From: a virus
Lineage: Duplodnaviria; Caudoviricetes
Reading direction: 5' to 3' (one strand)
Length of the DNA stretch: 64,000 nucleotides
IMG/VR virus record: IMGVR_UViG_3300027708_000016
The notes beneath the pieces are model-generated. The model saw only the letters and a list, made by a program, of their open reading frames with translations. It made no database searches and was not told where the DNA came from. The first letter of the stretch is position 1. The number at the start of each line of letters is the position of its first letter. The position numbers and the translations under genes were made by a program. Positions 4,037-47,135 of this stretch are shown here, piece by piece.

Positions 4037-4525
4037 ATGAGAAATAAAGATACAATTTTATTAGAAGAAGCTTATGAACAAGTCTTAATAGAAGAAAACT
4101 GGAAAGGCTTATTAGCTTCAGCAGCAATGGCTTTATCTAATCTATTAGCACCGCAAGCTAATGCAGCACAAGGACCTAATTTAGTTCAACAAGCAGCTTC
4201 AAATATAGAACAAGCTTACACTCAATCTGCTCAAGGTGTTAGCAAAGGTACTAATAATGTAACATTCTATGACGCTGCTAAGAAAGATATCAATCAGCAG
4301 ATATCTCAGAAACTCGGTATACCAGTTGATCAAGTAGAATCTCGTCTCCATAATATATATAATTCAGATCCTGAAAAGTATAAAGGTTTGGAATTCTATT
4401 TCGGTAATGCGCCTGAGCTTAGAGATAATACTACTGCGTCAGTAAGGAATACTGACGCAGTAAGGAATACTGACGCAGTAAGCAATACTGATTCTATAGT
4501 TAATACAATATCTCAAGGTGGATAA
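4037..4525 (+). CDS. Hypothetical late protein with N-terminal EAY motif and NTDAVR repeats
   Basis: MRNKDTILLEEAYEQVLIEE; TAAATA upstream; three 18-nt repeats at about 4447-4500. Confidence 0.7.
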   Translation: MRNKDTILLEEAYEQVLIEENWKGLLASAAMALSNLLAPQANAAQGPNLVQQAASNIEQAYTQSAQGVSKGTNNVTFYDAAKKDINQQISQKLGIPVDQVESRLHNIYNSDPEKYKGLEFYFGNAPELRDNTTASVRNTDAVRNTDAVSNTDSIVNTISQGG

Positions 4526-4530
4526 TTATA

Positions 4531-4902
4531 ATGAACTTTGATATAATTTTAGAAGCAATTAAAAAAGACATGGGTGTTGAGGATAAATTTGATGAATTTC
4601 TCAACAAACGTAAAGCTGGTGCTGAAAAATTAGAAGCACAGACAAGAAAAAAAGGTGGTTATTCTTTACTCACTGCCATCCATTATGCTGCTAAAGAAAA
4701 ACCATACGCTGATGCCTTAAAATGGCAAAACAAGGAAGGTAAAGAAAAACATTTTAAAGAAAAAGCAGAAGAAATTTATAAGAAATTAGCTGATCTAGAT
4801 TCGTTAACCCAACGAGAATTTCAAGATCTTATGGGTAGACTAGAAGTATATGGTGAGGTTTACATTCGTGCTACAAAGCCTAATAGTATTAAGCTTGATT
4901 AA
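4531..4902 (+). CDS. Hypothetical protein
   Basis: Clean ORF co-oriented with neighbours. Confidence 0.6.
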   Translation: MNFDIILEAIKKDMGVEDKFDEFLNKRKAGAEKLEAQTRKKGGYSLLTAIHYAAKEKPYADALKWQNKEGKEKHFKEKAEEIYKKLADLDSLTQREFQDLMGRLEVYGEVYIRATKPNSIKLD

Positions 4903-4928
4903 TTTTTAAAAACATCTATAATATATAG

Positions 4929-5330
4929 ATGACTTGGGAACAATACGCTCTTAAACTTGCAGAAGTTGCTGCACACAAATCTAAAGATCCTTGGCAAACC
5001 GTAGGATGTTGTCTTCTAAGGCATGATAATAGTGTTGCATCGTTAGGTTATAATGGTTTCCCTGCTGGAATGCAAGAAGATTGGAATGATAGAGATGAAC
5101 GCAGAAAGTATGTTGTTCATTCAGAGATTAATGCATTAAGATACGTAAAGCCCAATGAGTGCTATTTAGCGGCAACAACTTTATTACCTTGTAATGATTG
5201 TTTAAAATCTCTTGCTGCTTATGGTATCAAAAAAATTGTCTATAAAGACCTTTATAAATTTGACCCATCAACTCTTGAACTTGCTAAAAAATTCGGAATT
5301 GAATTAATCAATATCGTGACGGTAGACTAA
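4929..5330 (+). CDS. dCMP deaminase
   Basis: KSKDPWQTVGC, GYNGFPAG, HSEINAL, PCNDC zinc motifs. Confidence 0.92.
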   Translation: MTWEQYALKLAEVAAHKSKDPWQTVGCCLLRHDNSVASLGYNGFPAGMQEDWNDRDERRKYVVHSEINALRYVKPNECYLAATTLLPCNDCLKSLAAYGIKKIVYKDLYKFDPSTLELAKKFGIELINIVTVD

Positions 5331-5354
5331 TACGTTAGCTACCTTATCTGATTT

Positions 5355-5603
5355 TTAGGCTTTACCTATAAGACTTTTTGCTTTTCTGATAAGGTCAGAA
5401 ATAAAAGGAATTAAATCCACCACATCACCTTCATCAACTTTTTTTACAGCATCTGTGATATTATCAATTGATGTTTCAAGATTGGCAGAATTTGCTGACG
5501 GGGTTTCCTCTGGTGGTGTTGGTGTAACTTCGGATGAATTAACTTCGTTTGAAGTAACTTCATCATAGGCTTCCATTAAATTAAGGATATCCTTTTTATT
5601 CAT
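5355..5603 (-). CDS. Hypothetical late protein with EAY motif
   Basis: MNKKDILNLMEAYDEV; TAAATA upstream. Confidence 0.6.
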   Translation of the reverse strand: MNKKDILNLMEAYDEVTSNEVNSSEVTPTPPEETPSANSANLETSIDNITDAVKKVDEGDVVDLIPFISDLIRKAKSLIGKA

Positions 5604-5847
5604 ATGGAATATTTACCCACACGAATACCAAAATTAGAAATTTATTTTAAATGTTGTATATGTTCTTACTCTACTAATGCTATTAAAATTATTATAATCA
5701 ATAAAATTTTCCCCACTTAATAGTATCGATTTCGATACCTTTAACCCATAAAGATTTTCTAATTTTTCTCTTGCTATTTCTTTATCTTGTAATCCAATAT
5801 AGTTTATACTATTAGTATCTGCAAAACAAACACTTACAAATAATAAA

Positions 5848-6243
5848 CTACATACGAGAAATAATTTCATGAAATTCCCTAGGGATAATTACATTACTTG
5901 GGTAATTTTTAAACATAGGTGCAACATCTTCTGGTGTCCATCCTGCTAATCCGCAACCAACAGGCGTTAAAAGAAAAGTTTTATCGGGATTTTCTTTGGC
6001 AAAATCCAAAAAATCAATTATATGTCCTTGAATTTCAGTTAAAGGAAGAGTCCATATATTTTCATCTTTAGTAGGAAGAGCATAACATCTTCCTGTCATT
6101 CCAATACCGACTCCAAACTTTGCACCAAATACTTTATGTGCAAATCTTGCTGCTCCTGCTCCATGTATTCCAGCAAGATTGCTTCCAAATACAAATACTT
6201 CATTAGGTTTAAGTTCTATTATGTGATCAGGAGTATATTTCAT
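5848..6243 (-). CDS. A1S_2505-family phage protein (macro-domain-like)
   Basis: VFVFGSNLAGIHGAGAA, YALPTK, VGCGLAG signature. Confidence 0.85.
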   Translation of the reverse strand: MKYTPDHIIELKPNEVFVFGSNLAGIHGAGAARFAHKVFGAKFGVGIGMTGRCYALPTKDENIWTLPLTEIQGHIIDFLDFAKENPDKTFLLTPVGCGLAGWTPEDVAPMFKNYPSNVIIPREFHEIISRM

Positions 6244-7223
6244 ATTTTTTTAAAAACAAATGTTGGCTCGTATTTAAATCCGCCTTTTGTGATACTGGAT
6301 AGTTGGAGTTTAAGAGTTTCAATCAATGTAAAGCCTTCTTCTTGTGCAATTCTAACTGTATCATCTTCCAAGGTTTTATGACTGATTACATTTGCTACAT
6401 TGAGTATCATATGACCATTCCATTTAAGACAACTATAGCAGTTTTGTATCGTCTTACGCAAGAAGTTTTCATTCCAAGAATCAACATTATCATAGGCTAA
6501 ATAACTCTGTGTTGCTTCGTCTGAATACTTTTCAGTATTAAAATAAGGAGGAGAGGTAAAACATAAATCTACATCTTGAGAGAATATAAACTGGTCTTCG
6601 CTACCTCTTTTTTGAATCAATGAATACATTCCTGCGTATTGAAAATCTTTCTGCATTTGTTGTAACCCATTAAAGGTTTCTGTACTGGGATCAGAGCCAT
6701 AATAGAACCTAACAGCACCACTTACCAATGCCCCTAGATATCTACCACCAAAGCCACAAGACATATCCCAAACAACTCCACCACCTGCATAGGTTTGGTA
6801 AATTGCTGCTGCTGCTGACGGTCTGAAGTTTGATACAGCTTGAACACCAGAATAACTTCTGATTGCTTTTCTGATTTGAGAATCTGTCATCGAACCATCG
6901 GGTTTAAGCATGGGAAACCCTCCCCTTTTTAATCTTCTTTCAACGGCTTTTTTAAGTAGATCTTTGTTCTCAAAAACTTCCATAGGAGTTTTCATATTGC
7001 GAGTCTTCACACTCCATGCATGAGGAAAGTATGACCATGCCAATCCCAAACCGTGCATGGTTTGTCTTATCACACCCCCTTGAATAATTTTTGATATATC
7101 ATATTTTTTGATTTTCTCTAATTCTCTTTTCTTTTCATCTAAAGAGAATTCATAGTAAGGAAATCCCCTGCTTAATACATAAGCATAGGCTGTATCCAAA
7201 ACATTACTATCAAATGTGTACAT
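6240..7223 (-). CDS. DNA amino-methyltransferase (m6A/m4C)
   Basis: DMSCGFGGR (motif I) and FTSPPYF (motif IV). Confidence 0.85.
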   Translation of the reverse strand: MYTFDSNVLDTAYAYVLSRGFPYYEFSLDEKKRELEKIKKYDISKIIQGGVIRQTMHGLGLAWSYFPHAWSVKTRNMKTPMEVFENKDLLKKAVERRLKRGGFPMLKPDGSMTDSQIRKAIRSYSGVQAVSNFRPSAAAAIYQTYAGGGVVWDMSCGFGGRYLGALVSGAVRFYYGSDPSTETFNGLQQMQKDFQYAGMYSLIQKRGSEDQFIFSQDVDLCFTSPPYFNTEKYSDEATQSYLAYDNVDSWNENFLRKTIQNCYSCLKWNGHMILNVANVISHKTLEDDTVRIAQEEGFTLIETLKLQLSSITKGGFKYEPTFVFKKI

Positions 7224-7388
7224 TATCCTTTGATATCAAATTGGGATTAGATTCAATAAGTCTAGAAATTATACTGATAATATCTCTAGGTGTAAAGGAA
7301 GAAACCCAATCACATTCTTCACAGATATGATCAACCTCTTCCATATAAAGCTTATAAAGCCTTTCTCTCTCTATCAATTGCTATATTT

Positions 7389-14272: not shown

Positions 14273-14296
14273 TATGCTTTAAGAGGAGGTGTCAAG
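14271..14296 (-). promoter_or_regulatory. Truncated copy of repeated early-promoter unit
   Basis: Minus strand CTTGACACCTCCTCTTAAAGCATA then directly the ATG; canonical -10 missing. Confidence 0.6.
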
Positions 14297-14551
14297 TGAT
14301 TTAGCCAAGCCAAGTTTATCTTGTACCTTACATAAAATTTTATTTAAATTTGCATCTAACTCCCAAGAAGCAATGCTTCTTGGGTCCCAAGAAGCATTTG
14401 ACATACCATCTTTATCATATCTATTACCCAAACTTTCGATATATTGTTTGTTAAAATTCAAATGACATACCCAATTATCATTTTCATCAAGTATAGATAC
14501 ATACACTGAAGAAAACCCATTATGTATTTCTGTCTTATATTTCATAATCTT

Positions 14552-14581
14552 ATTCTATGTGCTTTAGGAGGAGGTGTCAAG
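14552..14581 (-). promoter_or_regulatory. Sigma70-type early promoter (repeated unit)
   Basis: TTGACA-cctcctcctaaagcaca(17)-TAGAAT. Confidence 0.85.
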
Positions 14582-14794
14582 TTTTTGTTGATTCTTTTTG
14601 AATCTTACTAAACAATCAAAGATATAATCCTCTTCTTTATTTTGCATATTCTCTGGTACATTCTGTAAAAACGAACCAATAATCATTAAACAATATTGAA
14701 CAATTTCTTCTCTAGAAATAGAAGAAGTATTGAACTTAACACCTACACCATATTCATCATTAGCTTTAAAAATTTCTAGTATATTCATCATAAT

Positions 14795-14824
14795 ATTCTA
14801 TATGCTTTAAGAGGAGGTGTCAAG
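14795..14824 (-). promoter_or_regulatory. Sigma70-type early promoter (repeated unit)
   Basis: TTGACA-cctcctcttaaagcata(17)-TAGAAT. Confidence 0.85.
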
Positions 14825-14833
14825 CTAAAATGC

Positions 14834-15424
14834 TTAAATCCAAACAAACAATACTCTACGAATAACTTCTATTGGGTATTTAAAGTTTGTTCTATGTTTA
14901 AAAACAAACCATCCTAGTAATACAAAACAAAGCAACAAGACAGCTATAATAGTGTTAGGTTCAGGTAAGGGACAAATCTGATTACCAAAAGCTTGTCCAG
15001 TTCCTAGGAAATTAGTACCACTATAGAATACTATATTTTTTAAGTTACTACTATTTGGGACAGTAGTAAATTTTAAAACCTCTGATGTATTATTAGGATT
15101 ATAGTTAATAATAGATAGAATATAATTATTAATGTTTATAAGACTATAAAAAGTAAGGAGAGTATTACCAGAGATTGTAGTAAAATCAATTGTACTATTA
15201 GCTGTTAGAGTAAGGGTTCCAAATGTTTGACTAATAGTTTTATCAGCAGTCCTATTACCTCCATTGGACAATAATAAGGTTCCCCCATTTAGGACAACAG
15301 CAGTTCCTACAGTCTGTGGATTATTACCCTTTCCAACATTAAAAGTATCTTCAGAATTAACAAGAATTACAGTACCAAAAGTATTACTAACAAAGAGTAG
15401 AAATATAGCAAGGAATCTAATCAT
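14834..15424 (-). CDS. Secreted protein with PEP-CTERM-like sorting signal
   Basis: Signal peptide; beta-strand repeat-like GGTLLL/GTLTLTANSTIDF; C-terminal LPEP + TM helix + KHR. Confidence 0.75.
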   Translation of the reverse strand: MIRFLAIFLLFVSNTFGTVILVNSEDTFNVGKGNNPQTVGTAVVLNGGTLLLSNGGNRTADKTISQTFGTLTLTANSTIDFTTISGNTLLTFYSLININNYILSIINYNPNNTSEVLKFTTVPNSSNLKNIVFYSGTNFLGTGQAFGNQICPLPEPNTIIAVLLLCFVLLGWFVFKHRTNFKYPIEVIRRVLFVWI

Positions 15425-15678
15425 ATAATACTGTATGCTGTACCTCTTACTGGAGGTGGTGTTGGGTAAGGACTCTTTTTTGGCTTAGGAATAGGGGTTA
15501 TTGCAGGTCGAGGGGTAGGTGTGGGTGTTGATGCAATAGGTTTAATTGGTTTGGCATTAGGGAGGGTTTGCTTAGTAACTGGCGTGGGTCGAGGAGTTGG
15601 AGTTGGTGTTGACTTTATACTATCTTCAGCAAATACTGAGGTAGATAAAATTAACATTATTAATATTTTTTTCATAAT
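15421..15678 (-). CDS. Secreted Pro/Thr-rich small protein
   Basis: MKKILIMLILSTSVFA signal followed by PTPTPRPTP repeats; start approximate. Confidence 0.55.
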   Translation of the reverse strand: MMKKILIMLILSTSVFAEDSIKSTPTPTPRPTPVTKQTLPNAKPIKPIASTPTPTPRPAITPIPKPKKSPYPTPPPVRGTAYSII

Positions 15679-15749
15679 ATTATTATAATGATATTTAACA
15701 GGAAGTGTCAATATAATTGTCACTTAATTTATTTTAAGTAAATTATTAC

Positions 15750-15778
15750 AGTCTATATGCTTTAGGAGGAGGTGTCAA
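15750..15778 (-). promoter_or_regulatory. Sigma70-type early promoter (repeated unit)
   Basis: TTGACA-cctcctcctaaagcata(17)-TAGACT. Confidence 0.8.
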
Positions 15779-16430
15779 AAGAATCTTATGAATTATCCAA
15801 AATTGTACTTTAGACATCCAATATAAAAACAACATTCCTAAGATAGTATAAACACATAATGCTTCAAAAGCATTTGGTTCTGGTAAACTATCTAACCAAT
15901 TAATAAATCTTTGTCTCATTTAGATTCCAACTCTTTAATCTTATTCAAAAGCTGTTCATTCTCTTCCTTAAGTGTCATATACTTTCGATTTAGATTCAAA
16001 TAAGCATCAAGTGCTCCACTTAGTTCTTCTTTATGTAAAGAAGTTCTTGAATCATACTCTTTAAGAGTATTGTCATTAATGTATTCTTGTAGGTTTTGTG
16101 TTTCTGTTGTCATATTTTTAATATTATATACTATTAGAAGGACTAGTCAAGAGAATCTTCAGCAACTTCTGGTATAAAGTTTTTAGGAATGTTATCATCC
16201 AACCACTCTTTTGGTCTTTCTGTAAACCTTCCCTCTTCACCCAACAAACTAAAATAAGCTGTCTCCAATCCAATAAGCATACCATACATATACTCATTGA
16301 TGTTATAGTTGCCATTCTGCTTTTGGATGTCAATAAGACCTTTAATCTTTGGCACAGCATAATCTCTAAAGATTTCTTTAACCAAATTATCATTCCATCT
16401 TACTTCTTTTTGTTCTTCATTCATAATCTT

Positions 16431-16460
16431 ATTCTATATGATTTAAGAGGAGGTGTCAAG
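16431..16460 (-). promoter_or_regulatory. Sigma70-type early promoter (repeated unit)
   Basis: TTGACA-cctcctcttaaatcata(17)-TAGAAT. Confidence 0.85.
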
Positions 16461-16464
16461 CAGA

Positions 16465-17181
16465 TTACCAACCCTCCTCTTTCTTTCTTGGTGCTGTTAC
16501 AAATACTCCCCAATCATCTCCACTGAATGAAATCTCATACTTGTCACCTTTAGGAAGAGTTTTAAACTTCTTATCAATGAGATCAAAAGCACCTTTGAAG
16601 TCTCCAACCGAGATCAAATTTTCTAGCTTCTTTTGAATACTCTTCGGAGCCTTGAAAAACTTCCTAGTACTAAATCCTTCTACAACTGGATTAGGAACAT
16701 CAGAATAACTTCCCCAACAAGTATCAAAGTCTCTTCCAGTACCAGCGTATCCATCGTTTCTTTCGTATGCCATATATTGCCTTAGTGTCTTCTGAATCAT
16801 ATATGCTTCCTCTCCACCATAGCCATACTGACCAATTCCCCATGCAGCATTAGGAGAACCAAGATCTTTGAAGTATACAGATCTAATAAGCTTCTCAATT
16901 TCTTTATTATCGCCATAATGATAATATTTTCTATCCTTTAACATCTTGGTTTGCTTATCTGCATAACACTCATCAAGAGCCATATCAATCTGACCACTTC
17001 TCATTCTTTGAAATACTTCCAATGCTCTTACGAGGACAGGAAGATGCCTCTCATCAAAGATAACTGTGACTTTCTTATGTTCTTTTTTCTTTTTAGCTTT
17101 CAAATTTTTAACATGATTTTTCATTTCTTGGACATCCTTTTGGATTTGTTTGTGATCTTCTTTAATGTAATTGTGAATCAT
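16465..17181 (-). CDS. Hypothetical phage protein
   Basis: 238-aa ORF directly downstream of an early promoter. Confidence 0.65.
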   Translation of the reverse strand: MIHNYIKEDHKQIQKDVQEMKNHVKNLKAKKKKEHKKVTVIFDERHLPVLVRALEVFQRMRSGQIDMALDECYADKQTKMLKDRKYYHYGDNKEIEKLIRSVYFKDLGSPNAAWGIGQYGYGGEEAYMIQKTLRQYMAYERNDGYAGTGRDFDTCWGSYSDVPNPVVEGFSTRKFFKAPKSIQKKLENLISVGDFKGAFDLIDKKFKTLPKGDKYEISFSGDDWGVFVTAPRKKEEGW

Positions 17182-17187
17182 TTTTAT

Positions 17188-17217
17188 AGTCTATAGGAAT
17201 CTTTAGGTGGTGTCAAG
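17188..17217 (-). promoter_or_regulatory. Sigma70-type early promoter (diverged unit)
   Basis: TTGACA-ccacctaaagattccta(17)-TAGACT. Confidence 0.75.
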
Positions 17218-17500
17218 CTTCTTCTTCTAATTTTGCAATACAATTTCTTGTTATTATTAAATATCATAAACCAGTGTGATAGAATGCTTCATCAGAAGAA
17301 CCAGTGGCATAACCATCACCATAGCCTTCACTATATTTTTCAAGTTTAATATCTTCTATTTCTTCTATAAATTTATTATATTTTGATTCTAAAGATTTTG
17401 CTAATTCAATAAGACCATCTACCCAAGCATCATATGATTCATATTCATCTCTATTTTTAATATAATTTTCTACAATGGATTCTTTATTCATGATTCTTAT

Positions 17501-25899: not shown

Positions 25900-26268
25900 T
25901 TAAGCGTTATATGCGACTACACTACCACTAGCTAACTTTATTGCACCAAATGAACCATTAATGGTAAAAGATGCGGGAAAGGTTGGAACATTAATTGCAC
26001 TAACAGTAACACCGTTTGTACCAGTTAAACCTGAAATTGTTGTTGCTGCAATTGTTTGAATTGCAGCAAAATTACCAGTTACTGTATTTGTTGTTGCTAT
26101 TACTGTAATTCCATTACTACCTAAAGAGTTTACCTTGTATATTGCCTGTGCAAATAATGGTCTATTTAAATCATTGTTAACATCAACCCAAGAATAATTT
26201 TGAGCCGCATTTGGGTTTGGGATTTGCGTAACACCAGAAACAGTTGGATAGTATGTAGAATAATTCAT
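25900..26268 (-). CDS. Late, probably structural protein
   Basis: TAAATA upstream; T/G/S-rich; shares motif with 40435..41649. Confidence 0.55.
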   Translation of the reverse strand: MNYSTYYPTVSGVTQIPNPNAAQNYSWVDVNNDLNRPLFAQAIYKVNSLGSNGITVIATTNTVTGNFAAIQTIAATTISGLTGTNGVTVSAINVPTFPASFTINGSFGAIKLASGSVVAYNA

Positions 26269-26286: not shown

Positions 26287-27009
26287 TTAGGCTTTTTTGT
26301 TTTTATTTAACCACTGAGTAGTTAAGAATTGACCAGTTGGGGTTGTTTTATTTGTTAAAGGTGTACTTAACTTTGGTTGTCTTGTTGCCTTATCTGTTCC
26401 CATAACCTGATGCCAGTTACGATCCTTAAACATATACTGTTTTACGGGTTTAGTGTTTGTTGAATATGTTGCATTGTTTGGTATACCACCATTCATTTTT
26501 TCTAATGTTGAAGCAGCAGCTTCATCTGAAGGTGCGTACTCTTCTTTTTCCTCTGTACTTGGTTCAGTATCCGTTGTTAATGGTGTAGTTTCCTTTGGTA
26601 CTTCGGATGTGGGAGGCTTTGTAATTGGTTCTGGTGCCTCTGTTTCTGTTGGTTCAATACCTACCTTTGTGGCAATAAAATCACCAAGCGACTTTGTTAA
26701 AGTAGCGGTATCTTCATCTGTTGCTTTATAATCTTTTCCAAGAACGCCCAATGATACAAGATCGTTTAATGCATTTTTAACTATTGATTTGATAATATTT
26801 TCCCTTTTACCTTGTTTATAAACATCTGATGCACTTATTTCATTACCCTTGCCACCACTAAGAGCACTATTTAATCCCTTTCCGTATTGTTTTGATGCAT
26901 CATATGCTGCTTTTACTCTTGCACCAGTTTGACGAAAAATCCCTTCTTCAAGTGGTTTATTGTAAACTTGTGAATATGCTTCTGATATAGATGTAAACTT
27001 TTCGCTCAT
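26287..27009 (-). CDS. Late protein with EAY motif
   Basis: MSEKFTSISEAYSQVYNKPLEE; TAAGTA upstream. Confidence 0.65.
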   Translation of the reverse strand: MSEKFTSISEAYSQVYNKPLEEGIFRQTGARVKAAYDASKQYGKGLNSALSGGKGNEISASDVYKQGKRENIIKSIVKNALNDLVSLGVLGKDYKATDEDTATLTKSLGDFIATKVGIEPTETEAPEPITKPPTSEVPKETTPLTTDTEPSTEEKEEYAPSDEAAASTLEKMNGGIPNNATYSTNTKPVKQYMFKDRNWHQVMGTDKATRQPKLSTPLTNKTTPTGQFLTTQWLNKNKKA

Positions 27010-27052
27010 ATAGAATATACTTATTCAGTATATTAACATTTTCAAAGTAAAA

Positions 27053-29301: not shown

Positions 29302-29351
29302 TAGACAATATTAACACTATTAATGCTCATTAAATTACTAAATATTAAAGA

Positions 29352-30284
29352 GTGAAAGATAAAGATACAAATTTAATAGCCGAAGCATATTCAAAAATTG
29401 AGGTTATTTCTGAACAAAGAGATTCTCAATTTTGGTATAAGTGGCTTGAAAATTATAGAAATCCTAGTGGATATAATGATTATAAACATTACACTAAAAA
29501 TGCTGATAACAGCATTAAAATTAATGGTTCTGTTGATTTAAGTGAAATGGGAATCACTTCTTTATCGGAAATACCTTTTAAAATTAAAGAAGTTAACGGT
29601 AACTTTATAGTAAGAGGTAACAATTTAACTTCTTTGGAAGGTTGCCCAGAAATAGTTACTTTTAGATTTGATTGTTCTGAAAACAATTTGAGCAGTTTAG
29701 AGGGTTCACCGAAATTTGTAATTGAGCAACAATATACTTCTTTTAATGAATATAATTGTAGCAAAAATATAAATTTAACATCATTGAAAGGAATGCCTTC
29801 TTCTGTAGGGGGTGAAATAAATGCTGATAAGTGTAATCTATTATCTTTAGAAGGAATGCCCGATTATTGTGGGTGTTTAAAAATTAATAGTAATAGACAT
29901 TTACAATCATTAGTAGGCGCACCTCAAAAAGTAAAATTATATATTGATTGTTCAGAGTGTGATCTTATAAATTTAATAGGGTGTCCACAGGAAGTTAGAA
30001 TTATATTTTGTTCTCTTAATAAAAATTTAATATCATTAGAAGGTGCGCCCAAAAAACTAAAATCAATATCAAAAGACGAAACTCAATTTCATTGTTTTGG
30101 CTGTGATAAGTTAAAATCTTTAGAATTCTTACCAGAAGCAGACAAGTATAACTTAGGCTTTGAATTGGAAAAACAATTAGAAGAAATAAAAAAACAAAGA
30201 AAAATTGATAAAATGGCTGGTGAAATATCAGATGATCCAAATGATGTATTTGTTAAAACATTTAAAGATTTCAGTAAGTTTTAA
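29352..30284 (+). CDS. LRR-like repeat protein (LTSLEGxP repeats) with EAY N-terminus
   Basis: About 9 repeats of N.L.SL.G.P; MKDKDTNLIAEAYSKI; GTG start; TAAATA upstream. Confidence 0.8.
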   Translation: MKDKDTNLIAEAYSKIEVISEQRDSQFWYKWLENYRNPSGYNDYKHYTKNADNSIKINGSVDLSEMGITSLSEIPFKIKEVNGNFIVRGNNLTSLEGCPEIVTFRFDCSENNLSSLEGSPKFVIEQQYTSFNEYNCSKNINLTSLKGMPSSVGGEINADKCNLLSLEGMPDYCGCLKINSNRHLQSLVGAPQKVKLYIDCSECDLINLIGCPQEVRIIFCSLNKNLISLEGAPKKLKSISKDETQFHCFGCDKLKSLEFLPEADKYNLGFELEKQLEEIKKQRKIDKMAGEISDDPNDVFVKTFKDFSKF

Positions 30285-31547: not shown

Positions 31548-33254
31548 TTATTTTCTCTTTGCTGCTTCTGCACTTAACATTGATGATGTTTCCTGCATTT
31601 CTTTCATGAATTTTTGTGCAAAATTTGCCTTCTCGGTTGCATCATAATTTCCAGTTTGTAGATATTTAAATACCGTCATTAACGTATCTTTATCCAATCT
31701 GTTTTTCAATTGAATAAAAATATCTTGTGACCATTCAGGATGTAAATTGTTAAACACCTTTGCAATATTTTCAAGGATGTATTGCTCATTTGGTGTAAGA
31801 GGACTATTAGGATTTTTATGTAATAATTTTGAAACGTATGCAAACTTACCAGCCAAGAATTCCGCAATCTTAAACATATCAGCTTGATATTTATCTTCAA
31901 TTTTTCCACCCGTATCAAGATGACCAACTAATGATTTCATGTCATATGCTCGTAAAAGCTTTATGAAATTAACAAACTCATCTGCCCATGCTGAACCCAA
32001 TAACCCAGCAGCCTTATCCCAAATATATCTATAAGGAGGAACTGGTAAAGTTTTACCTTCCTTTTTAGCCTTTGCGTATATTCGATATGCGTGTTTTAAT
32101 TGATCTGAAAATTTCTCAATCTGTCTTGGTACTGGTAATGGATCGCCAGTTCGCGAAGATTTAATTTCACGATCTTCCGTAGGTATAAATATATTTGCCT
32201 TCCCTTCTCTACCTTCCTTACTTGGAGCAACCACTTCGTGTTTTATAAATGCTATAATTCTTGGATCTACACCTTCATGCACAGCAAAATCACACCATGC
32301 TTCGGGATCAGCAACTAAAACACCAGACTCAAATCTTGTTACCAAGGCTAATGGTATTGGCTCGTTTCCAAAAGCAGATGCCAAATTAGCAGCAGCCAAA
32401 ATTGCCCACCCTTCACTGAATTTACCTTTTCCACCTGAACGATCTAAAACTACTTTAAATAAAGCTTTTAATGTTTGTTTATCACCTTGATTTAATTCGT
32501 CCAAAAAGAGAATACCATCCGAGCCTGGTCTTGTCATTAACCAAATCCATAAATCTTGATTGTAACTAACAGGTGCTTCAACGTCTTCGTTTTCACCTAC
32601 TACTTGTTCAAGAGTTTTAAAGGGAATACCCTTGATATCAGAAGGTTCAAGTTCATTTGCTCTTACATCAACTAAAGCAAAATAATTTTGAGGATTTCTT
32701 AAACAATCCATGATTTCCTCTGGTTCTGCCTTTAAGAAATTAATATATTTTCTTTGCTTTCCCGTTCTTTGTTTTGTTTTTGGATCAATCGATTCACTTC
32801 CACCAACAAAAGAAGTCGATGCAAGATCTTTTGCAATACTTGCAACCATTGTACTTTTACCGATACCAGAACCACCGTAAATTAAAAGAGGTTGTTTTGT
32901 TACATAAGAATTTCTTATATACATGTCTATAGTTTTATAACTATATTGTGGTAATTCTGTATCTGCATAACTTTTTACCATCTCTTCGCCAGCCGTACCG
33001 TCACCTAAATCAAGATTATCTAAATCTGCTTCCAAGTCAGGTTCTTCAACTGGTAAAACTAAATTCTCATGATCTTCTGCTGAAGCTGTTGATTTGGTTG
33101 GTGGTTTTGATAATTTTGCAACAGATCCTTTGATTTTATCAAACCCACCAACTTCTGATGAATTATCCTTGAATTTTGCAGCGGACTCATCGGCTTCATT
33201 AAGATAAACAGCACCATAAGCTTCCATCAGTTTAAATAAATCTCTATTGTTCAT
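31548..33254 (-). CDS. MoxR-like AAA+ ATPase with N-terminal EAY extension
   Basis: Walker A GGSGIGKS, DIKGIP, Walker B LFLDELN, AAAN, ALVTRF. Confidence 0.88.
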   Translation of the reverse strand: MNNRDLFKLMEAYGAVYLNEADESAAKFKDNSSEVGGFDKIKGSVAKLSKPPTKSTASAEDHENLVLPVEEPDLEADLDNLDLGDGTAGEEMVKSYADTELPQYSYKTIDMYIRNSYVTKQPLLIYGGSGIGKSTMVASIAKDLASTSFVGGSESIDPKTKQRTGKQRKYINFLKAEPEEIMDCLRNPQNYFALVDVRANELEPSDIKGIPFKTLEQVVGENEDVEAPVSYNQDLWIWLMTRPGSDGILFLDELNQGDKQTLKALFKVVLDRSGGKGKFSEGWAILAAANLASAFGNEPIPLALVTRFESGVLVADPEAWCDFAVHEGVDPRIIAFIKHEVVAPSKEGREGKANIFIPTEDREIKSSRTGDPLPVPRQIEKFSDQLKHAYRIYAKAKKEGKTLPVPPYRYIWDKAAGLLGSAWADEFVNFIKLLRAYDMKSLVGHLDTGGKIEDKYQADMFKIAEFLAGKFAYVSKLLHKNPNSPLTPNEQYILENIAKVFNNLHPEWSQDIFIQLKNRLDKDTLMTVFKYLQTGNYDATEKANFAQKFMKEMQETSSMLSAEAAKRK

Positions 33255-33288
33255 GTTTTAATTATAAATTACTTATCTCTATACAAGG

Positions 33289-34233
33289 TTAATATGTGTA
33301 TTTTATATCAACTTTATAAATGAAATTTGTGTATCTTCCCTTTAAATATTCGTCTGTTGAGTTTCCATGTAGTAATACTACAGTTTGACCTTTAATTTTT
33401 GGTTTTATTAAAGTTCCCATTCCTTCTTCAATTCGTCCATCAGTAAAAATTAAAAGGTTGTCAACATTTACTTTTTCCAATTGTTTTATATCTTGATTTA
33501 CCCACATAGAAACAGGGTTAATTCTCGTACCACCTTCAGCAATTGTAACGTTTTCAAGCTCTTCTTTAATTTGCTCAAAAGATTTTTCTGGTATTTTTAA
33601 ATGAGTAAATTTATAAACTTTTTCAGTAAAATAAATTATGTATATATCAAGATGTTTAAATTTTTTAATTATTGTTAAAATCTGATTTCTTATTGTTCTT
33701 AAAACTGGTTCTCTCATACTACCAGAAGTATCGATTGCAATTACACCAGTAAATTTATTTTCTTCTTTAGATTTGCCAGGTAAAAAGACACCAACCGCAC
33801 CACTTTTTTTATGTCTTTTTGTAAAGTCATATCTTGTGTTAGCAGAATTTGTTAAAAATCTTTGTAAAATAGTTTCCCAATTCATACCAGCTTGCTGCCA
33901 ATTAAGATCTTTATCTAAAGCTTGTTCTTCGCCGTGTCCCGATCCACCTTCACCTTTTGCTTGTTCTGCGGTTTCTTTTCTATTTTTTCTAACTTTATTT
34001 TTTTGTTCTTCGGTTTTTGGGTTGGTTCTATATACAGGATTTTTTGTGTATTTTGAAACGTCAATTATATCATGTTGATGATTACTATTATCGTAAATAT
34101 GAGTATCACCTTGAACGTGTGATCTTTCAATTTTGGGTTTAGTTCCTTCAAATTTAGCAGTACCTTGACCAGTTCCTTCGCTAACTGGTTTTAGTTTTCT
34201 TACTTTATCTCTGTTTAAAATAATATCACTCAT
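33289..34233 (-). CDS. vWA-domain protein (DUF2201 C-terminal type)
   Basis: MIDAS DTSGSM, GGT, FTDG; [10 protein letters not shown]; start overlaps upstream stop (ATGAGTGA). Confidence 0.85.
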
Positions 34234-35428
34234 ATTTTTTTCTATCGTTTTTTGATAATGGTTTAATTTTATAATGACCATCTGGGGTAATTTCAGTTAC
34301 TTCTCCAAAATTACCTCTGTCATCTTCGATTACATCACCTACACTAATATCATTGCCTTGGTCTTTTGTACCCGTACCAGTTGATGAACTAGTACCCGTA
34401 CCAGTTGATGTTCCTCTTCCAGTTTGCGTAGATGTACCAGTACCTGTTTGGGTTCCTGTACCAGTTCCTGTTTGAGTTCCTGTACCTGTCTGAGTACCAG
34501 TTCCTGTTTGAGTTCCTGTACCTGTCTGAGTACCAGTTCCTGTCTGAGTACCAGTACCTGACTGAGTACCAGTTCCTGTTTGGGTTCCTGTACCAGTTCC
34601 TGTTTGAGTTCCTGTACTTGTTTGAGTTCCTGTACCTGTTTGAGTTCCTGTACCTGTCTGAGTACCAGTTCCTGTTTGGGTTCCTGTACCAGTTCCTGTT
34701 TGAGTTCCTGTACCTGTTTGAGTTCCTGTACCTGTCTGAGTACCAGTTCCTGTTTGAGTTCCTGTACCTGTCTGAGTACCAGTTCCTGTTTGGGTTCCTG
34801 TACCAGTTCCTGTACCCTTACTTTTATTTTTTTCTAAAATGTCATATATTTGTTCTGCTTTTAAATCAGTAATATCAACATTATTAAGTTCCCATCTCGG
34901 AGGTGTCATCCAATCTTTTCCGTTAGCTATCCATCTTCCGTTTTTAAGAACAGGAAGTAAAGCCATACGATTTAATTTCAACCCAAAAATTTCCAAATAT
35001 TTGTTAATAACATAATCAGTAGAAACATTCCAGAGAAGATTGTCTCTACCAAGTTGTCTATCAAAAGATGATAATAAATAATGATGAACCTCGTGAGCTA
35101 AAGTTGCGGTAAACTCATCTTCTGTTATTTCATAAGCAGCAAATTTTGGATTTATGTAAAGATTTTCATAACCATCAACTGCCATTGTATCAACAGACCA
35201 ATCAAGATTAATAGCTAATTTTTTAAGGTGAATTCCTATTGTTTTAAAAAATCTCGACAAAAACATTTTAGAATTTAAAAGTCTTTTATCAATTATTTCA
35301 AAAGCTTCTCTTTCGTTAAATTCATCTCCTCCTTTAGAGGTGGGTGTGGGTTCAGGTGCTGGCGAATTTTCGTTATATATTGAAATATAACGCTCCATAA
35401 TAGATTGAAGATCTTTACTATATGCCAT
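34226..35428 (-). CDS. Putative metallopeptidase (DUF2201_N-like) with Thr/Gly repeat linker
   Basis: [30 protein letters not shown]; (TGTQTG)n; C-terminal SH3/KOW-like VGDVIED. Confidence 0.85.
34370..34815 (-). repeat. Coding tandem repeat encoding (GTGTQT)n
   Basis: About 20+ imperfect 18-nt units such as gttcctgtacctgtttga. Confidence 0.95.
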
Positions 35429-35474
35429 ATGAATAAATACTTATACGATTTTAAATTATTTCTACAAAAAAAAA

Positions 35475-36927: not shown

Positions 36928-37074
36928 TTATGACTTTTTCTTTTTATTCTTAACGCAATTATTTACTCTCTTACCAGTTCTACCACTGGTTTTCATACCT
37001 TTTTTATGGTATCCATCCCAACACTTTATTTTCTTTTCTTCCAATATGGAAGCAACTAAAAGATCGTATTTCAT
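36928..37074 (-). CDS. 48-aa protein with CWxGY...NCV motif (not in ORF track)
   Basis: MKYDLLVASILEEKKIKCWDGYHKKGMKTSGRTGKRVNNCVKNKKKKS. Confidence 0.6.
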   Translation of the reverse strand: MKYDLLVASILEEKKIKCWDGYHKKGMKTSGRTGKRVNNCVKNKKKKS

Positions 37075-37492: not shown

Positions 37493-37555
37493 ATTATTAC
37501 ATGTATATGATTATACTTACAGTATGTTGTTACACTTTTAGTCTAAATATTATAG

Positions 37556-40422: not shown

Positions 40423-40434
40423 ATATAATACTTA

Positions 40435-41643
40435 TTACAAAGCGGAATTAGAAATCAAAATTCCTTCTACTTGTAAACCTACAATAAGAGTAAATCCTGT
40501 ATCTGCTTTACATTGCCATTGACAATCTGTTTTTTGACTATATGATCTTGGTGATATTCTTACTGATGAATAATTTGAGTAAAAAGGAGATTGTAAAATT
40601 GTGGTAGTTAAACCATTATTGGTTGTATAAGATCTATAACAAGCATTCACTGGACTATTATTATTATTACCTTGATTATTAATTACATAGTTACAAAACG
40701 CATTTACTCTTTCAAGATAAAATGTATAACCATTAGGAACAGTATATACTGTCATTGAACTTCTATCGGTTCCAACTTCAATACTTGCAAGTATATTTGT
40801 TTTATCAGATGTTCCTAAATCAATCTCACCAACTGCCATTGGTGTTCTTGTTAAACTAATTCCATTTATTCTATAATAACTAGAAAGAGTTAAAACCCCT
40901 GTTGTTCCATTTGTTAAAACTAATGTTTCATTTATAGGGTTATAATTTGCATCCAATCCATCGATATAAACAGAGACATTGGTATCAGAATTTGATTTAC
41001 TCCATAAACGAAGTTGTTGAGCAGACGTTAAAAAAGTATAGGTTGAATATTCCCAGATTGGTTGAAATGTTCCACCAACAGCTGAAGCATATCCAGTAAA
41101 ACTTTTTAATGTTGCTCCAGCAATTTTACCTCTCCCAACTTGAAACAACCAATTTGCATCACTTATATTAATACTGCTGATTTGTACAATTCCACTAGAG
41201 GTAACATTTGTTACTGGATTTAAAATAGTAACGGCTGTAACTGGGTTTGTGATAGACACTGCACTAACTGTATTTGTTTGAAATACATTTAATGCATGAT
41301 TGGTAACATATGCATAATTCCCAAATTGATCACCGATTGAAACAGAATCAGCAGTTGCAGTTAAATCTTGAGAAAGTACTCTTAATGCCCCTTGTCCCAC
41401 ACCAATTGGTGCAACGTCTGCATGTAATCCAGTAATCGGATCAGATATATGAACATCACCAATATTAACATTACTGGCACTTAAAGAAATACTTAACCCA
41501 TCAAAGTTTGTTATATAAGATGCTTGAGCATATAAAGGTCTGCCAGCATTATTATCGACTTGAATCCAAGAATTATTGGGAGGTATGTTGGCATTAGCAT
41601 ACCCAGCAGATACTTGGTTACTGAATACATAATTGCCCATCAT
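40435..41643 (-). CDS. Probable virion structural protein
   Basis: T/S/N/G-rich beta-structure; YTVPNGYTFYL; N-terminal motif shared with 25900..26268. Confidence 0.55.
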   Translation of the reverse strand: MMGNYVFSNQVSAGYANANIPPNNSWIQVDNNAGRPLYAQASYITNFDGLSISLSASNVNIGDVHISDPITGLHADVAPIGVGQGALRVLSQDLTATADSVSIGDQFGNYAYVTNHALNVFQTNTVSAVSITNPVTAVTILNPVTNVTSSGIVQISSINISDANWLFQVGRGKIAGATLKSFTGYASAVGGTFQPIWEYSTYTFLTSAQQLRLWSKSNSDTNVSVYIDGLDANYNPINETLVLTNGTTGVLTLSSYYRINGISLTRTPMAVGEIDLGTSDKTNILASIEVGTDRSSMTVYTVPNGYTFYLERVNAFCNYVINNQGNNNNSPVNACYRSYTTNNGLTTTILQSPFYSNYSSVRISPRSYSQKTDCQWQCKADTGFTLIVGLQVEGILISNSAL

Positions 41644-41895
41644 AGACAATTACTTAGCCAACTGTTCTTTATAACCAACAACAAGTTCTTTCCAACTTTC
41701 AAATTTCTCTATTGGTTCTGGTATCTCCCAACCAAAAAACCAAAACTTACCTTTTCTATATTGGGCAATCTCGTAAGTTGGATTACCATCTTTATCTTTA
41801 TCTTTGGAGACAACCAAGTAAAGAAATTCTTCTATTAATTCTGGATTAGTATCGCTCATATTTTAAACTTACCCTGAAAAAAAAAATTTCAAGTC

Positions 41896-43874: not shown

Positions 43875-43877
43875 ATT

Positions 43878-43971
43878 TGGTAGGGTGTATCAGAATTGCA
43901 CTGATGCTCGGCCCTCATCTAGGGCGCACAGATTATAAGTCTGTCGGTACTTCTAATTATACGAACACCCC
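43878..43971 (-). tRNA. tRNA with UAU anticodon and long variable arm
   Basis: ACAGA-CTTATAA-TCTGT; V-arm GCCCT-AGATG-AGGGC; A73-CCA. Confidence 0.8.
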
Positions 43972-43977
43972 AAATTT

Positions 43978-44157
43978 TTAAAGGTCTTCTTCCTCCTTCT
44001 CAGGGTTAATCAAGTTATCGATCTCTTCTTGAATTCTCTTGATCTCATCATTGTATGCCTTTGATGAGGATTTCTTACGATCCTTGATCTCATCCAAATC
44101 CTTGCAGAGTTGGAATACTCTTTCTTCTCTTGTTGTTCTTGCTGTTGTTGTTTCCAT
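43978..44157 (-). CDS. 59-aa coiled-coil protein (not in ORF track)
   Basis: METTTARTTREERVFQLCKDLDEIKDRKK...EEEDL*. Confidence 0.6.
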   Translation of the reverse strand: METTTARTTREERVFQLCKDLDEIKDRKKSSSKAYNDEIKRIQEEIDNLINPEKEEEDL

Positions 44158-44173
44158 ATTGTTTGTTTAAAGT

Positions 44174-44249
44174 TGGTAGCTATGGTCGGATTCGAACCGA
44201 CACTTTACAGATTTTAAGTCTGTTGCCTCTGCCGTTGGGCTACATAGCC
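44174..44249 (-). tRNA. tRNA-Leu(UAA) with short variable loop
   Basis: ACAGA-CTTAAAA-TCTGT; 76 nt; CCA. Confidence 0.9.
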
Positions 44250-45233
44250 ATATTGTTATATGTTTATAATAGTTGTTTCAGAGGTTAATGTCAATACTTC
44301 TTTGTAATCTTTCCCTTAACCTTTACAAAGCCTTCAGTCTTGCCAGAAGTTTTAGGAAAGTTCTGAACAAACTTTTTCATATCAGATACACGAGATTTAG
44401 ATCCTTTTGACATATTATTTGAAGTGGATTTGATATGCTTGGTTTGCAGCGTGAGTAATATAGTGTTTTGCGTTTTTCTTTACCACATCTACAAGATCTT
44501 TTTTAATTGAAGATTTTGTGCTAAACAATGTCTGAGTGTTAATATTTGTTTCCACAAAATGTAGAAAACTATCAAGAGTATCTCTTATGATTTTATCAAT
44601 TTCTAGTTGATCTATTCTTTCTTTATTATTTTCGTTGTTGCTCATAAATTTTTACTTGTTCTTAATAAAGCGACCCTTGTTATCTCTCATGAGTCTTTTT
44701 ACTGGTTTCTTCTTCTTGATAGGGTTAAGGTTAACCGAAGACTTTACATTTTCCCTATAAAACTCAACTGCTTTCTTAAGATTCTTCTTTGTGGTTTTCT
44801 TGGTCTTCTTTGCATACTTCTTAATGATTTCATCCGCTTCATCTGGTGTTACCTTAAATGATGGATTTTTTGAATTAAAGATTTCTGAAACATGCAAACC
44901 TTCATTGGCAAGAAACTCAAGTCTCTTTAAGACATAATTGCCATTGAAACAATGATCACTTGTTGCAAGCTTTAGAATCTCAATAAAGATGTTTGTAATG
45001 TCATCCTCTGAACCATTGTAGTAATCAGAATGAACATACTCATTGAGGTTACTGTGACTATCTAACCATGTATATAGACAGTTAATGCTACTTAGGGTAT
45101 TAACAGGAATAACCTTGTTAATGTTATCAATTACCACACAAAGAGCCTTTGCAACTCTTGAATCTTTATTTGTATTAGTCTCATTCATATAAGACTATCT
45201 TAAGCTTATTTTTTAAAAATGCAAGATTTATTT

Positions 45234-45620
45234 TTACAAACCTGAATTTTCAATATGATCCTCAATCTGGGAAAGCTTTAAATTGTATCCGTGTTCATGA
45301 AGACCCTGTTCAATTTGTTGGGCAAGTTTGTGGTGCTTTACTCCCCATTGCGCCATACCATCGGAATTAGCTCTCTTTGCTTCATAGTCATACATTTTCT
45401 TTGCATGGATAGCATCTTCAATGTCCTTTTTGAATTCATTATCAAAAAGTTTTTGAAGTTGTTCTTGGGACATGTTCTTTAAATAATGATACAAACCACC
45501 TAACCCAGCTGTGAGTGTTCCTGCAACAAGTGCTCCAATTGTTGCCATGTCCTCACTTAAAAGTTGAACTTGGTTATAAGCTTCCTCTAGTTTGATCTGA
45601 TCTTTTTTACTCGTGGACAT
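45234..45620 (-). CDS. Late protein with EAY motif
   Basis: MSTSKKDQIKLEEAYNQVQLLSE. Confidence 0.65.
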   Translation of the reverse strand: MSTSKKDQIKLEEAYNQVQLLSEDMATIGALVAGTLTAGLGGLYHYLKNMSQEQLQKLFDNEFKKDIEDAIHAKKMYDYEAKRANSDGMAQWGVKHHKLAQQIEQGLHEHGYNLKLSQIEDHIENSGL

Positions 45621-45621
45621 A

Positions 45622-45984
45622 TTACTTGCTTTTTTTTATGGGTTTACTTGTAATTTTCTTCCCTGCTTTCTTTGCGCTTTTCTTAATTCCCTTTACAATC
45701 TTTTCTTTTTTCTTGGGGGAGAACTTCTTTCCTGTCTTTTTTTCAACTGACTTCTCCACTGCCCAAGGATTGACATTGGTTTTATTAGATACTGCCTTCT
45801 TCTTTGCCTCTGCAATGATTTCTAAAACCTTTCCCAAAAGGGAAGCTCCTTCTTTTACAAGAGTTGATTTAGCCTTTACCCTCTTACTCTCCTTGAGAAC
45901 TTCCTTTTTCTTCTTTGAAGAATTACTTAAAATATTGGAATATGCTTCGGCTATTAAATCTGAATCGTTGTTTTTCATTTTCAT
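45622..45984 (-). CDS. Lys-rich basic late protein with EAY motif (possible DNA-binding internal protein)
   Basis: DSDLIAEAYSNIL; VNPWAVEKS; about 30% Lys; TAAGTA upstream. Confidence 0.65.
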   Translation of the reverse strand: MKMKNNDSDLIAEAYSNILSNSSKKKKEVLKESKRVKAKSTLVKEGASLLGKVLEIIAEAKKKAVSNKTNVNPWAVEKSVEKKTGKKFSPKKKEKIVKGIKKSAKKAGKKITSKPIKKSK

Positions 45985-46254
45985 ATACTTACTCTCAACT
46001 TTCCAAAACCACCTGTAAATCTCTGAAAAGTTTAAATGCTGCCCCTACACTGAGGTGAAGCAAAATACCCTCAAAGGAAATCTTTATAATGGTGCTCTGG
46101 TTTACTTCTCCACTTTCGTCGAGAATTTCCTCCACCTTGACATTTTTGACAACAAAATTCTGACCTTTCTTTGCCTTGGCAGCAAATTCCTTGGTTTTCA
46201 TTCTCTTATTATAATCTTTTGACATAATATGTAAAGTTAACATTAAAAAAAATT

Positions 46255-46692
46255 TTAGAGTTTTTTCTCTAAAAAGTCCATTTGCCTGAAACCATTGGAA
46301 AGCAATAACTTCAATGAGGCAGAATTATCATGATAGACATCGGCTTTAAGGGTTTTAATTCCCAAGTCCTTAGAGGTATCAAATAAGAAATGAACAAGAA
46401 TATTACCCAATCCCTGACCTCTGAAATCTTTATGCATGACATAGCCAAAAGTTGCCTCCTTCTCCTTTCTCTCGTAAAGGGAAAATCCCCCAATGGGTGT
46501 TTCATTTATCTCTTCCCATTTAAATACGGTGAATCTTTCAACTCTGTTTAAATAATGCCAAAAATCATCATATCTTTCAACAATTGAAGAAATATTCATG
46601 TTTTCAGAAACAAGTTCATCTTCACAGATTTCTTTCCAAAAATCTATATCTTTTTTTTCTATTCTTCTGCATCCGTAGTCGTGGTAATCCAT
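46255..46692 (-). CDS. GNAT (RimJ/RimL-like) acetyltransferase
   Basis: FGYVMHKDFRGQGLG, N.ASLKLL..NGF. Confidence 0.88.
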   Translation of the reverse strand: MDYHDYGCRRIEKKDIDFWKEICEDELVSENMNISSIVERYDDFWHYLNRVERFTVFKWEEINETPIGGFSLYERKEKEATFGYVMHKDFRGQGLGNILVHFLFDTSKDLGIKTLKADVYHDNSASLKLLLSNGFRQMDFLEKKL

Positions 46693-47135
46693 AGGTACTA
46701 ATACTTATGGATAGAGAAATACTAATTTAGAGATGATTTAAAAACTGCTTGGTGTCCATCTCATGATGCACAAGATAATTTTGAAGCTTCTCGGAATTCA
46801 TCAACCCCAAAAGAAAATAATAACGAATTTCCATATCGTTTTTATGATGACGCAAAAAGTTACTAATATGGGTTAAAAGATTCCTCCAATCTTTATAATG
46901 GTCATCTTTTAGATCTATCTTCCAATTGTCATCATCATTACCATGAAGCTCAACGGTAATGACATGATCCTCATCTGGTTCTTCGTCCTCTGTCATCTTG
47001 ATATCCTTCTTCTCATAAAGCATACCATAGAGGTCACCAATCTTTCTGTAATCCAAGTCTTTCACCGTATATTACTTATCGATTAAAAAAATTTTTGTTG
47101 ACTTTTTCAAAAGATAATATAAAATAAAAAATAAT

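Follow-up and report, generated by a model that had tools for sequence, protein, structure and literature searches.

What does it mean that nine otherwise dissimilar open reading frames (ORFs) of one phage begin with the same short stretch of protein? The question is raised by a 64,000-nucleotide (nt) stretch of the IMG/VR virus record IMGVR_UViG_3300027708_000016 (Duplodnaviria; Caudoviricetes), which was analysed over its whole length and is called the window here. Comparison of the sequences suggests that the shared N-terminus, which we call the leader or tag, is probably, if with a good deal of reserve, a lineage-specific and longer form of the propeptide by which phage T4 targets proteins to its capsid. 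By analogy with T4, the tagged proteins of this uncultured freshwater T4-like phage would probably be loaded into the head and perhaps injected into the host. The G+C content of the window is 31-34% over bases 1 to ~47,700 and 42-48% in the remainder, and its DNA is also found on a 187.7-kb lake metagenome contig (JGI), which carries the window's leucine-rich repeat (LRR) gene.

A first-pass annotation of the window had described a tag on nine unrelated proteins. The N-termini of all nine ORFs, named below by their start positions (Table 1), were confirmed as translated and read as quoted there, and no pair of carriers showed similarity past residue ~22 (all-vs-all blastp, best E 0.99); that much of the description stands, with 47065 as its doubtful member. 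When the leaders were aligned on their invariant Tyr, the consensus re-read as M-x(2-4)-K-D-x(3)-[LI]-x-E/A-Y-x-x-[VI]-x(2-5)-[LIY]-x-E, in which the K is not present in all copies (here and below a slash marks a candidate cut). Six-frame translation of the window gives 14 copies of EAY. Seven of them belong to long ORFs, where they sit at residues ~10-15 and are flanked as [LIM]xEAYxx[VI]. Seven ORFs have [LIM]xEAY at residues 8-15; across the 77 proteins predicted in the low-GC part (13,776 aa) all seven occurrences of this motif fall within the first 25 residues, against 0.055 expected (mean of within-protein shuffles; Poisson P about 3e-13). A profile built from the nine leaders, as the first-pass annotation had suggested, matched exactly those nine in the window, a circular result given that the same nine served as its source. 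Leave-one-out profiles recovered 7/9 (E 6e-4 to 0.065), found 35428 (IMERY) weakly (E 2.2) and did not recover 47065 (IGDLY). The set thus has seven solid members, one (35428) that is backed by orthology and context, and one (47065) that is doubtful.

The Ala, Leu, Ile, Glu and Val codons of the leader vary among the copies at synonymous sites, and the mean nucleotide identity between copies is 0.49, 0.59 and 0.45 at codon positions 1, 2 and 3. Because the conserved residues use different codons, it is the protein sequence that has been conserved, as opposed to a DNA cassette copied from gene to gene. Its hydrophobic positions are spaced as in an amphipathic helix. The core [LI]xE is present in 8/9 leaders, 47065 having IGD instead, and a second hydrophobic-x-E follows 8-12 residues downstream in 7/9. 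The best-conserved hydrophobic-x-Glu is the core copy directly before A-Y, a site that the first-pass annotation had passed over when it placed the cut only at the downstream one.

That annotation had also pointed out that T4 internal proteins are processed at (I/L)-X-E, and the T4 record bears this out, with sites at MKTYQEFIAE/A in IPII and IPIII, MKTFKEF...ITE/A in IPI, MLKEQLIAE/A in gp22, MEGLIE/A in gp67 and ...QLLIE/T in gp21. The leader core is identical in form to these gp21-type sites, and IAE/A, as in IPII/III and gp22, occurs in two window leaders. The T4 capsid-targeting sequence (CTS), which is found on IPI, IPII and IPIII and in the propeptides of Alt, gp22, gp67, gp68 and gp21 and is removed by gp21, is likewise a short N-terminal propeptide on unrelated proteins; as in T4, the window leader has (L/I)-x-E followed by a small residue, and its genes lie in variable loci. 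In contrast to the CTS (MKTYQEFIAE), the window consensus, KDxxx[LI]xEAYxx[VI]...hxE (h, hydrophobic), is longer, contains two candidate cut sites and has conserved residues past the first, and its cargo includes large enzymes and proteins (AAA+ ATPase, metallopeptidase, LRR protein). T4 propeptides of 10-19 residues suffice to package foreign proteins (PMC9026906; PMC3012670), the residues for targeting are separable from those for processing (PMC9026906; PMC3012670; PMC12373910), and an Asp at P1 stops processing while targeting is kept (PMC9026906). This last result could, by analogy, apply to 47065. The T4 CTS has been proven by fusions and mutagenesis, whereas the window leader is known from sequence alone. 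In the giant phages phiKZ and SPN3US the processing sites are of the small-x-Glu form and the propeptides are long and dissimilar, in place of a single short leader common to all. The ejection proteins of these two phages go with a T4-gp21-like prohead protease, in a genome organisation that, unlike that of the window phage, is not T4-like. Before DNA is packaged, an S77-type protease processes many of their head-internal proteins, cutting after Glu (PMC5694885, PMC7411985, PMC10052503).

The leader is a module added to its cargo. For the ATPase, an AlphaFold2 (AF2) model gave predicted local distance difference test (pLDDT) values <50 over residues 1-104, with a low-confidence helix at 3-30; the chain is predicted to be disordered to about residue 104, an acidic linker of ~80 residues following the leader, and the confident AAA+ core comes after it. 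The Walker A motif lies at 127-134, with residues invariant in alignment A1, and at about residues 27-42 in leaderless homologues of cultured phages. The ATPase homologues carry PF20030 bpMoxR and PF07728. Both the ATPase and the peptidase-vWA protein begin directly at the domain in four cultured phages, namely PBECO4, an N4-like Vibrio phage, rV5-like YP-6 and cyanophage S-TIM5. Because these homologues do so, leader and linker are an addition, which the window phage and a clade of uncultured T4-like phages have on both proteins. ATPase homologues at 31-39% identity, from uncultured T4-like lineages, have other leaders that also contain hydrophobic-x-Glu (MLITEQDRIAE/FYKKVLVTE/A, MKFAKLVKE/A and MSYKNKDLVNLME/KYDKI...LILE/A), a weak criterion when taken alone, and the fused peptidase-vWA proteins of other lineages likewise begin with different leaders with hydrophobic-x-Glu.

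The LRR protein (29352) belongs to a family with 816 homologues, some with Pfam LRR_4, whose alignment has a 22-residue repeat consensus, NxLTSLEGxPxxVGGxFxC; these bear out the LRR-like call of the first-pass annotation, and a protein atlas gave weak LRR leads only. The consensus leader of the family is the T4-like MKxIKxxExFE, and the window copy has the EAY leader instead. Taking the three together, comparison of the proteins shows that the leader is exchanged between lineages in the ATPase, peptidase-vWA and LRR families.

The ATPase and the metallopeptidase, both named in the first-pass annotation, are confirmed by Pfam and PHROG as MoxR-type and DUF2201_N, respectively, and they recall the MoxR/vWA-metallopeptidase pair of group 2.2 jumbo phages (PMC7824862), which has the same three domains in the same neighbourhood, that is, a DUF2201_N peptidase and a vWA domain, fused or adjacent, beside a MoxR-type ATPase. 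Iyer et al. 2021 proposed for this pair a chaperone role coupled to the peptidolytic processing of virion proteins (PMC7824862). Two features differ here: the ATPase and peptidase bear the leader and a disordered linker, and the peptidase and vWA proteins are encoded by separate genes in the window. These two genes (33289-35428, minus strand) overlap by 56 nt, and the overlap is 8 nt in a relative. DUF2201_N peptidase and vWA are one fused protein in four related loci (L003-L006); the split form is kept in close relatives, with the leader on the peptidase half only.

Relatives of the window phage carry the tag too. Against two ~80%-identical phages (L001, L002) the leaders are 82-100% identical, as compared with 61-84% over the next 38 residues. 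For 27009 the figures are 91% and 68-71%, and for 35428 the tag is 86-100% and the remainder 49-64% identical. Even where ATPase identity has fallen to 32%, the EAY motif is still kept in the protein. The complete 218.4-kb IMG/VR phage G001 has an ATPase that starts MKLFKDIMSLQE/AYSNILNE/A, four clustered small ORFs with the EAY leader at 192.2-193.9 kb and a homologue of 4037 with a like leader type (P0365). G001 also encodes Peptidase_S77, and this protease together with a scaffolding core is present in G001, G002 and L005; in L005 the ATPase pair comes after gp21-gp22-gp23. In L004 and L006 arrays of small genes starting MKF/MNFxxLYxxhxE surround the ATPase pair. Adjoining the EAY cluster of G001 there is an array of about ten tandem overlapping small ORFs (L023 10211-15224; 194.2-199.2 kb) with MSFK/MYFN..hxE starts (for example MSFKxFFxE), each behind a ...CATT[TC]GGAGG...TTAG Shine-Dalgarno cassette.

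The cargo is not constant. A contig syntenic with window 42-46 kb (L044) has further tagged genes, each behind TAAATA or TAAGTA, which encode an ArdC-N protein (ArdcN 31 bits, Pfam cut-off 22.6), an L5-gp82-family protein and a 98-aa ORF, and it also carries a tagged orthologue of 45620; another contig (L043) has three tandem tagged genes. Since the cargo differs in these two, the cargo set varies between close relatives, as T4 internal-protein loci do. Upstream of the tagged trio, L043 1-7735 is a 43% G+C array of small genes, mostly starting MIKN.. behind a repeated CAAGGAAACCTCT.ATACT cassette, and resembles the G+C-richer block at window 47.7-64 kb.

A profile of 13 leaders was then run against 1.84 billion representative proteins (E <= 1e-3). 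Its 12 matches comprise two training sequences, two probable false positives (P0363, with five internal repeats, and P0372, with low-complexity repeats) and eight new small proteins. In five of the new proteins (P0361, P0366, P0368, P0369, P0371) the tag is listed from residue 1; in P0364 (residue 25) and P0367 (residue 11) it follows a probable mis-called start, and in P0370 the best score falls on an internal second copy. P0367 and P0368 are homologues of 45984 and share both its leader and its basic C-terminus. Four of the eight, P0361, P0364, P0369 and P0370, which come from other metagenomes, have two tandem tag copies, as expected for mini-polyproteins cut at each copy, which they could be; mis-called starts or fused ORFs are the alternative.

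The first-pass annotation had further tied the tag to a TAA[GA]TA late promoter. The low-GC part holds 89 copies of TAA[AG]TA on both strands, about 24 of them within 30 nt upstream of gene starts; the gap to the start codon has its mode at 6-7 nt, and the box ends 6-9 nt before most starts. Within 30 nt upstream the box precedes 8/9 tagged starts as compared with 16/69 untagged genes (Fisher p = 6.5e-4, computed on the 8 tagged genes kept by the gene caller), so the box is enriched before tagged genes but not specific to them. In T4, the gp55-dependent late promoter is TATAAATA, a -10 element that lies just ahead of the point where late transcripts begin. The box of the window is short and AT-rich. 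Its association with tagged genes is real, and its likeness to T4 TATAAATA would suggest late timing. In G001 the box stands before gp21 and gp22, but also before 30% of all genes. Two lake metatranscriptome runs gave exact contigs of 151-358 nt over parts of tagged genes; their RNA is inseparable from carried-over DNA and they hold no 5' ends, and they have no bearing on expression or habitat. Several small genes at window 14279-17491 (minus strand) stand behind near-identical cassettes, ACCTCCTC..TAAA.CATATAGAATAAGATT, that end at the start codon; these form another promoter class, sigma70-like and different from TAA[AG]TA.

Taken as a capsid-targeting propeptide, the leader would work as follows. 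A predicted amphipathic helix of about 20 residues, joined to unrelated cargo through a disordered linker, would bind the scaffolding core during head assembly, and the cargo would thereby be built into the prohead. The T4-type prohead protease (Peptidase_S77) would cut after the Glu of the [LI]-x-E/A core, at the second hydrophobic-x-Glu 8-12 residues past it, or at both. The freed cargo would stay in the capsid alongside the DNA, from where it may be ejected into the host. The predicted cargo comprises the MoxR-type AAA+ ATPase with its DUF2201 metallopeptidase partner, the LRR protein, the Lys-rich basic protein, two small hydrophobic-helix proteins and unassigned proteins, as well as, in a close relative, an ArdC-like anti-restriction protein. 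The capsid-targeting interpretation of the first-pass annotation thus gains partial support from the N-terminal position of the tag on otherwise unrelated carriers, its gp21-form core, the exchange of leaders, the leaderless homologues of cultured phages, the varying cargo and the presence of S77 in G001.

Several points weigh against it. We infer the prohead protease of the window phage and its specificity from relatives; the window holds no head genes (gp21, gp22, gp23), its phage's gp21 was not recognisable among the 120 homologues of G001 gp21 listed, and no near or distant DNA match to a cultured phage was found. An exact 45-mer taken from the window had no match in IMG/VR or among the JGI contigs. 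With tblastn, the ATPase, the LRR protein and the 82-aa protein had remote or no matches in cultured phages (none for the 82-aa protein). The MoxR/vWA pairs of other phages are not known virion components, and the supplement text that accompanies the Atu_ph07 virion proteome yielded no MoxR/vWA entry. Hydrophobic-x-Glu near the N-terminus is common, being present in most of 120 LRR homologues, so that weight attaches only to its fixed position within the conserved core. A-Y-x-x-V, also conserved, is past the first candidate cut, so either site is conceivable. The site of the G001 capsid protein that aligns with that of T4 reads C-F-E/S, not the canonical L/I-x-E; the same comparison gives the canonical L-R-E/A in L005, and because the two disagree the capsid-protein site adds little. 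G001 has two leader classes, which could mean two destinations; their expression signals also differ. Finally, TAA[AG]TA also precedes nrdB, HNH, GNAT and phosphoesterase genes; because it stands before non-structural genes too, it is on its own no mark of packaged proteins.

Among other explanations, an uncleaved assembly or localisation helix (for coiled-coil oligomerisation, or as a membrane, tail or baseplate signal), on proteins that would not be packaged with the DNA, seems unlikely to us, although it is the likeliest of them. The hydrophobic spacing fits an amphipathic helix, the AF2 model places a helix, at low confidence, at residues 3-30, two carriers have a hydrophobic segment right behind the leader, conserved A-Y-x-x-V runs beyond the first candidate cut, and G001 has its two leader classes. 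Soluble enzymes are among the carriers, however, the hydrophobic segments reach a maximum hydropathy of 1.0-1.5 over 19 residues, below that typical of transmembrane segments, and the pattern of an invariant Glu and, two positions earlier, a Leu or Ile is characteristic of a protease site; the tandem internal tags of four new proteins are also easier to reconcile with a cut-here signal than with an N-terminal anchor. Still less probable is a role as handle for the MoxR AAA+/vWA/DUF2201 machine of the phage itself, with tagged proteins as its substrates or subunits and the metallopeptidase removing the leader outside the capsid. It would account for the leader on both ATPase and peptidase, it agrees with the peptidolytic chaperone pair proposed by Iyer et al. 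2021 (PMC7824862), and every lineage in which such leaders were seen also has the pair, in a sample that is biased because the loci were retrieved through the ATPase. Against this, T4 lacks the pair and yet has working leaders of this form, the pair of cultured phages is without leaders, and an enzyme bearing its own substrate tag is not parsimonious; because the conserved core matches the site of the serine prohead protease and T4 manages without the machine, the handle is the less parsimonious explanation.

Two further accounts look much weaker. That the likeness reflects constraint or history at the nucleic-acid level, by 5' coding selection for near-leaderless mRNAs or by copying of a promoter-plus-leader cassette, would agree with a box 6-9 nt before most starts, from which mRNAs might be nearly leaderless, and with A-rich first codons (M-N/K-K-D). 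Yet the codons of conserved residues vary between copies, 16 untagged boxed genes lack the motif, and the motif is kept at the protein level despite 32% ATPase identity; on the codon variation we rejected this account for the core, and overall we hold it to be very improbable. A recognition sequence for a radical-SAM/SPASM modifying enzyme is the least probable of all and was excluded: the Ser-rich 16-residue tag linked to radical-SAM enzymes (MKIRNGFVSNSSSSS) is unrelated in sequence to the EAY leader, Radical_SAM has no match in the complete tag-bearing G001 while 14/14 control genomes match, and the tag-bearing loci L001-L007, L043 and L044 are free of radical-SAM genes.

We keep to a capsid-targeting propeptide. 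A wider version of it, which we put forward tentatively and with clearly less confidence, is that in this clade of uncultured freshwater T4-like phages a two-site 'EAY' address tag directs a variable, sequence-readable set of cargo into the capsid (a complete MoxR AAA+/vWA/metallopeptidase machine and LRR, histone-like basic and ArdC-like proteins), that this cargo may act in the maturing head or, once injected, may disarm the host, and that tandem tags might mark small polyproteins cut in the head.

Table 1. Tagged ORFs, candidate short-form leaders and the vWA partner gene in the window (boxes are TAA[AG]TA; a slash marks a candidate cut).
Feature	Coordinates	Strand	Length (aa)	Leader and remarks	Box
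Tagged ORF 4037	4037..4525	+	162	...DTILLEE/AYEQVLIE/E, then Ala-rich hydrophobic stretch	TAAATA, 4025-4030
Possible short-form leader, basic	4531..4902	+	123	MNFDIILE/A...; by eye only; between two tagged genes	
Tagged ORF 5603, acidic	5355..5603	-	82	...DILNLME/AYDEV; Pro/Thr-rich linker	TAAATA, 5610-5615
Tagged ORF 27009, no assigned function	26287..27009	-	240	...FTSISE/AYSQVYNKPLEE/G	TAAGTA, 27018-27023
Tagged LRR protein 29352	29352..30284	+	310	...DTNLIAE/AYSKIEVISE/Q; GTG start	TAAATA, 29339-29344
Tagged MoxR-type AAA+ ATPase 33254	31548..33254	-	568	...DLFKLME/AYGAVYLNE/A; Pfam, PHROG	TAAGTA, 33270-33275
Untagged vWA / DUF2201 partner	33289..34281	-	330	Pfam VWA_2, DUF2201, VWA	
Tagged DUF2201_N metallopeptidase 35428	34226..35428	-	400	...DLQSIME/RYISIYNE/N, then Pro-rich linker; weaker motif member; Pfam DUF2201_N E 4.5e-15	TAAGTA, 35438-35443
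Possible short-form leader, very basic	36928..37074	-	48	MKYDLLVASILEE/K; by eye only	
Tagged ORF 45620	45234..45620	-	128	...DQIKLEE/AYNQVQLLSE/D, then Gly/Ala-rich hydrophobic helix	own box absent, CAAGTA only
Tagged Lys-rich ORF 45984, pI about 10.5	45622..45984	-	~118-120	...DSDLIAE/AYSNIL	TAAGTA, 45986-45991
Doubtful member 47065	46727..47065	-	112	...DYRKIGD/LYGMLYE/K; GTG start; Asp replaces Glu	TAAGTA, 47073-47078

Some of the carriers call for separate comment. The 82-aa protein (5603) had a weak match to phrog_14971 'virion structural protein' (E 3.5e-4). For the 240-aa protein (27009) the protein atlas returned nothing, and a search for related loci with it retrieved an unrelated contig (L042) only. 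ORF 45620 is probably co-transcribed with 45984. The latter has two in-frame ATGs 6 nt apart, and the second, at 45978, is probably the true start, since it restores the usual 7-nt box gap and the usual distance from Met to [LI]xE. Of the two short-form leaders, that of 4531..4902 has a homologue on L004 that begins MKFLLLVE/S.

Three other window genes were noted in passing. A GNAT acetyltransferase gene at 46255-46692 (minus strand), flanked by tagged genes, has a TAAGTA box and no leader, and at the syntenic position L044 has different genes. The genes at 25900-26268 and 40435-41649 (both minus strand) have late-type boxes and a common N-terminal stretch (...NYSWVDVNNDLNRPLF... and ...NNSWIQVDNNAGRPLY...), had no Pfam match and, to judge by this stretch, are probably paralogous; L044 11140-11565 starts similarly.

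Capsid targeting as a principle has been on record for T4 since the 1990s, and what is gained here is breadth and type of cargo, with no new mechanism; from the sequences compared, three traits are particular to the window clade: the EAY form, the layout with two sites and the MoxR/peptidase cargo. If the capsid-targeting reading is true, the packaged and possibly delivered proteome of an uncultured phage would be listable from its genome, and for this clade the list would include, beside an AAA+ chaperone and its metallopeptidase, LRR proteins and an anti-restriction protein of ArdC type, cargo that is larger and more enzymatic than the three small inhibitors of T4. The diverged tags would form a natural series for studying how cargo and scaffolding core recognise each other, and the widespread, unexplained phage MoxR/vWA/DUF2201 pair would have, in the prohead, its first concrete place of action.

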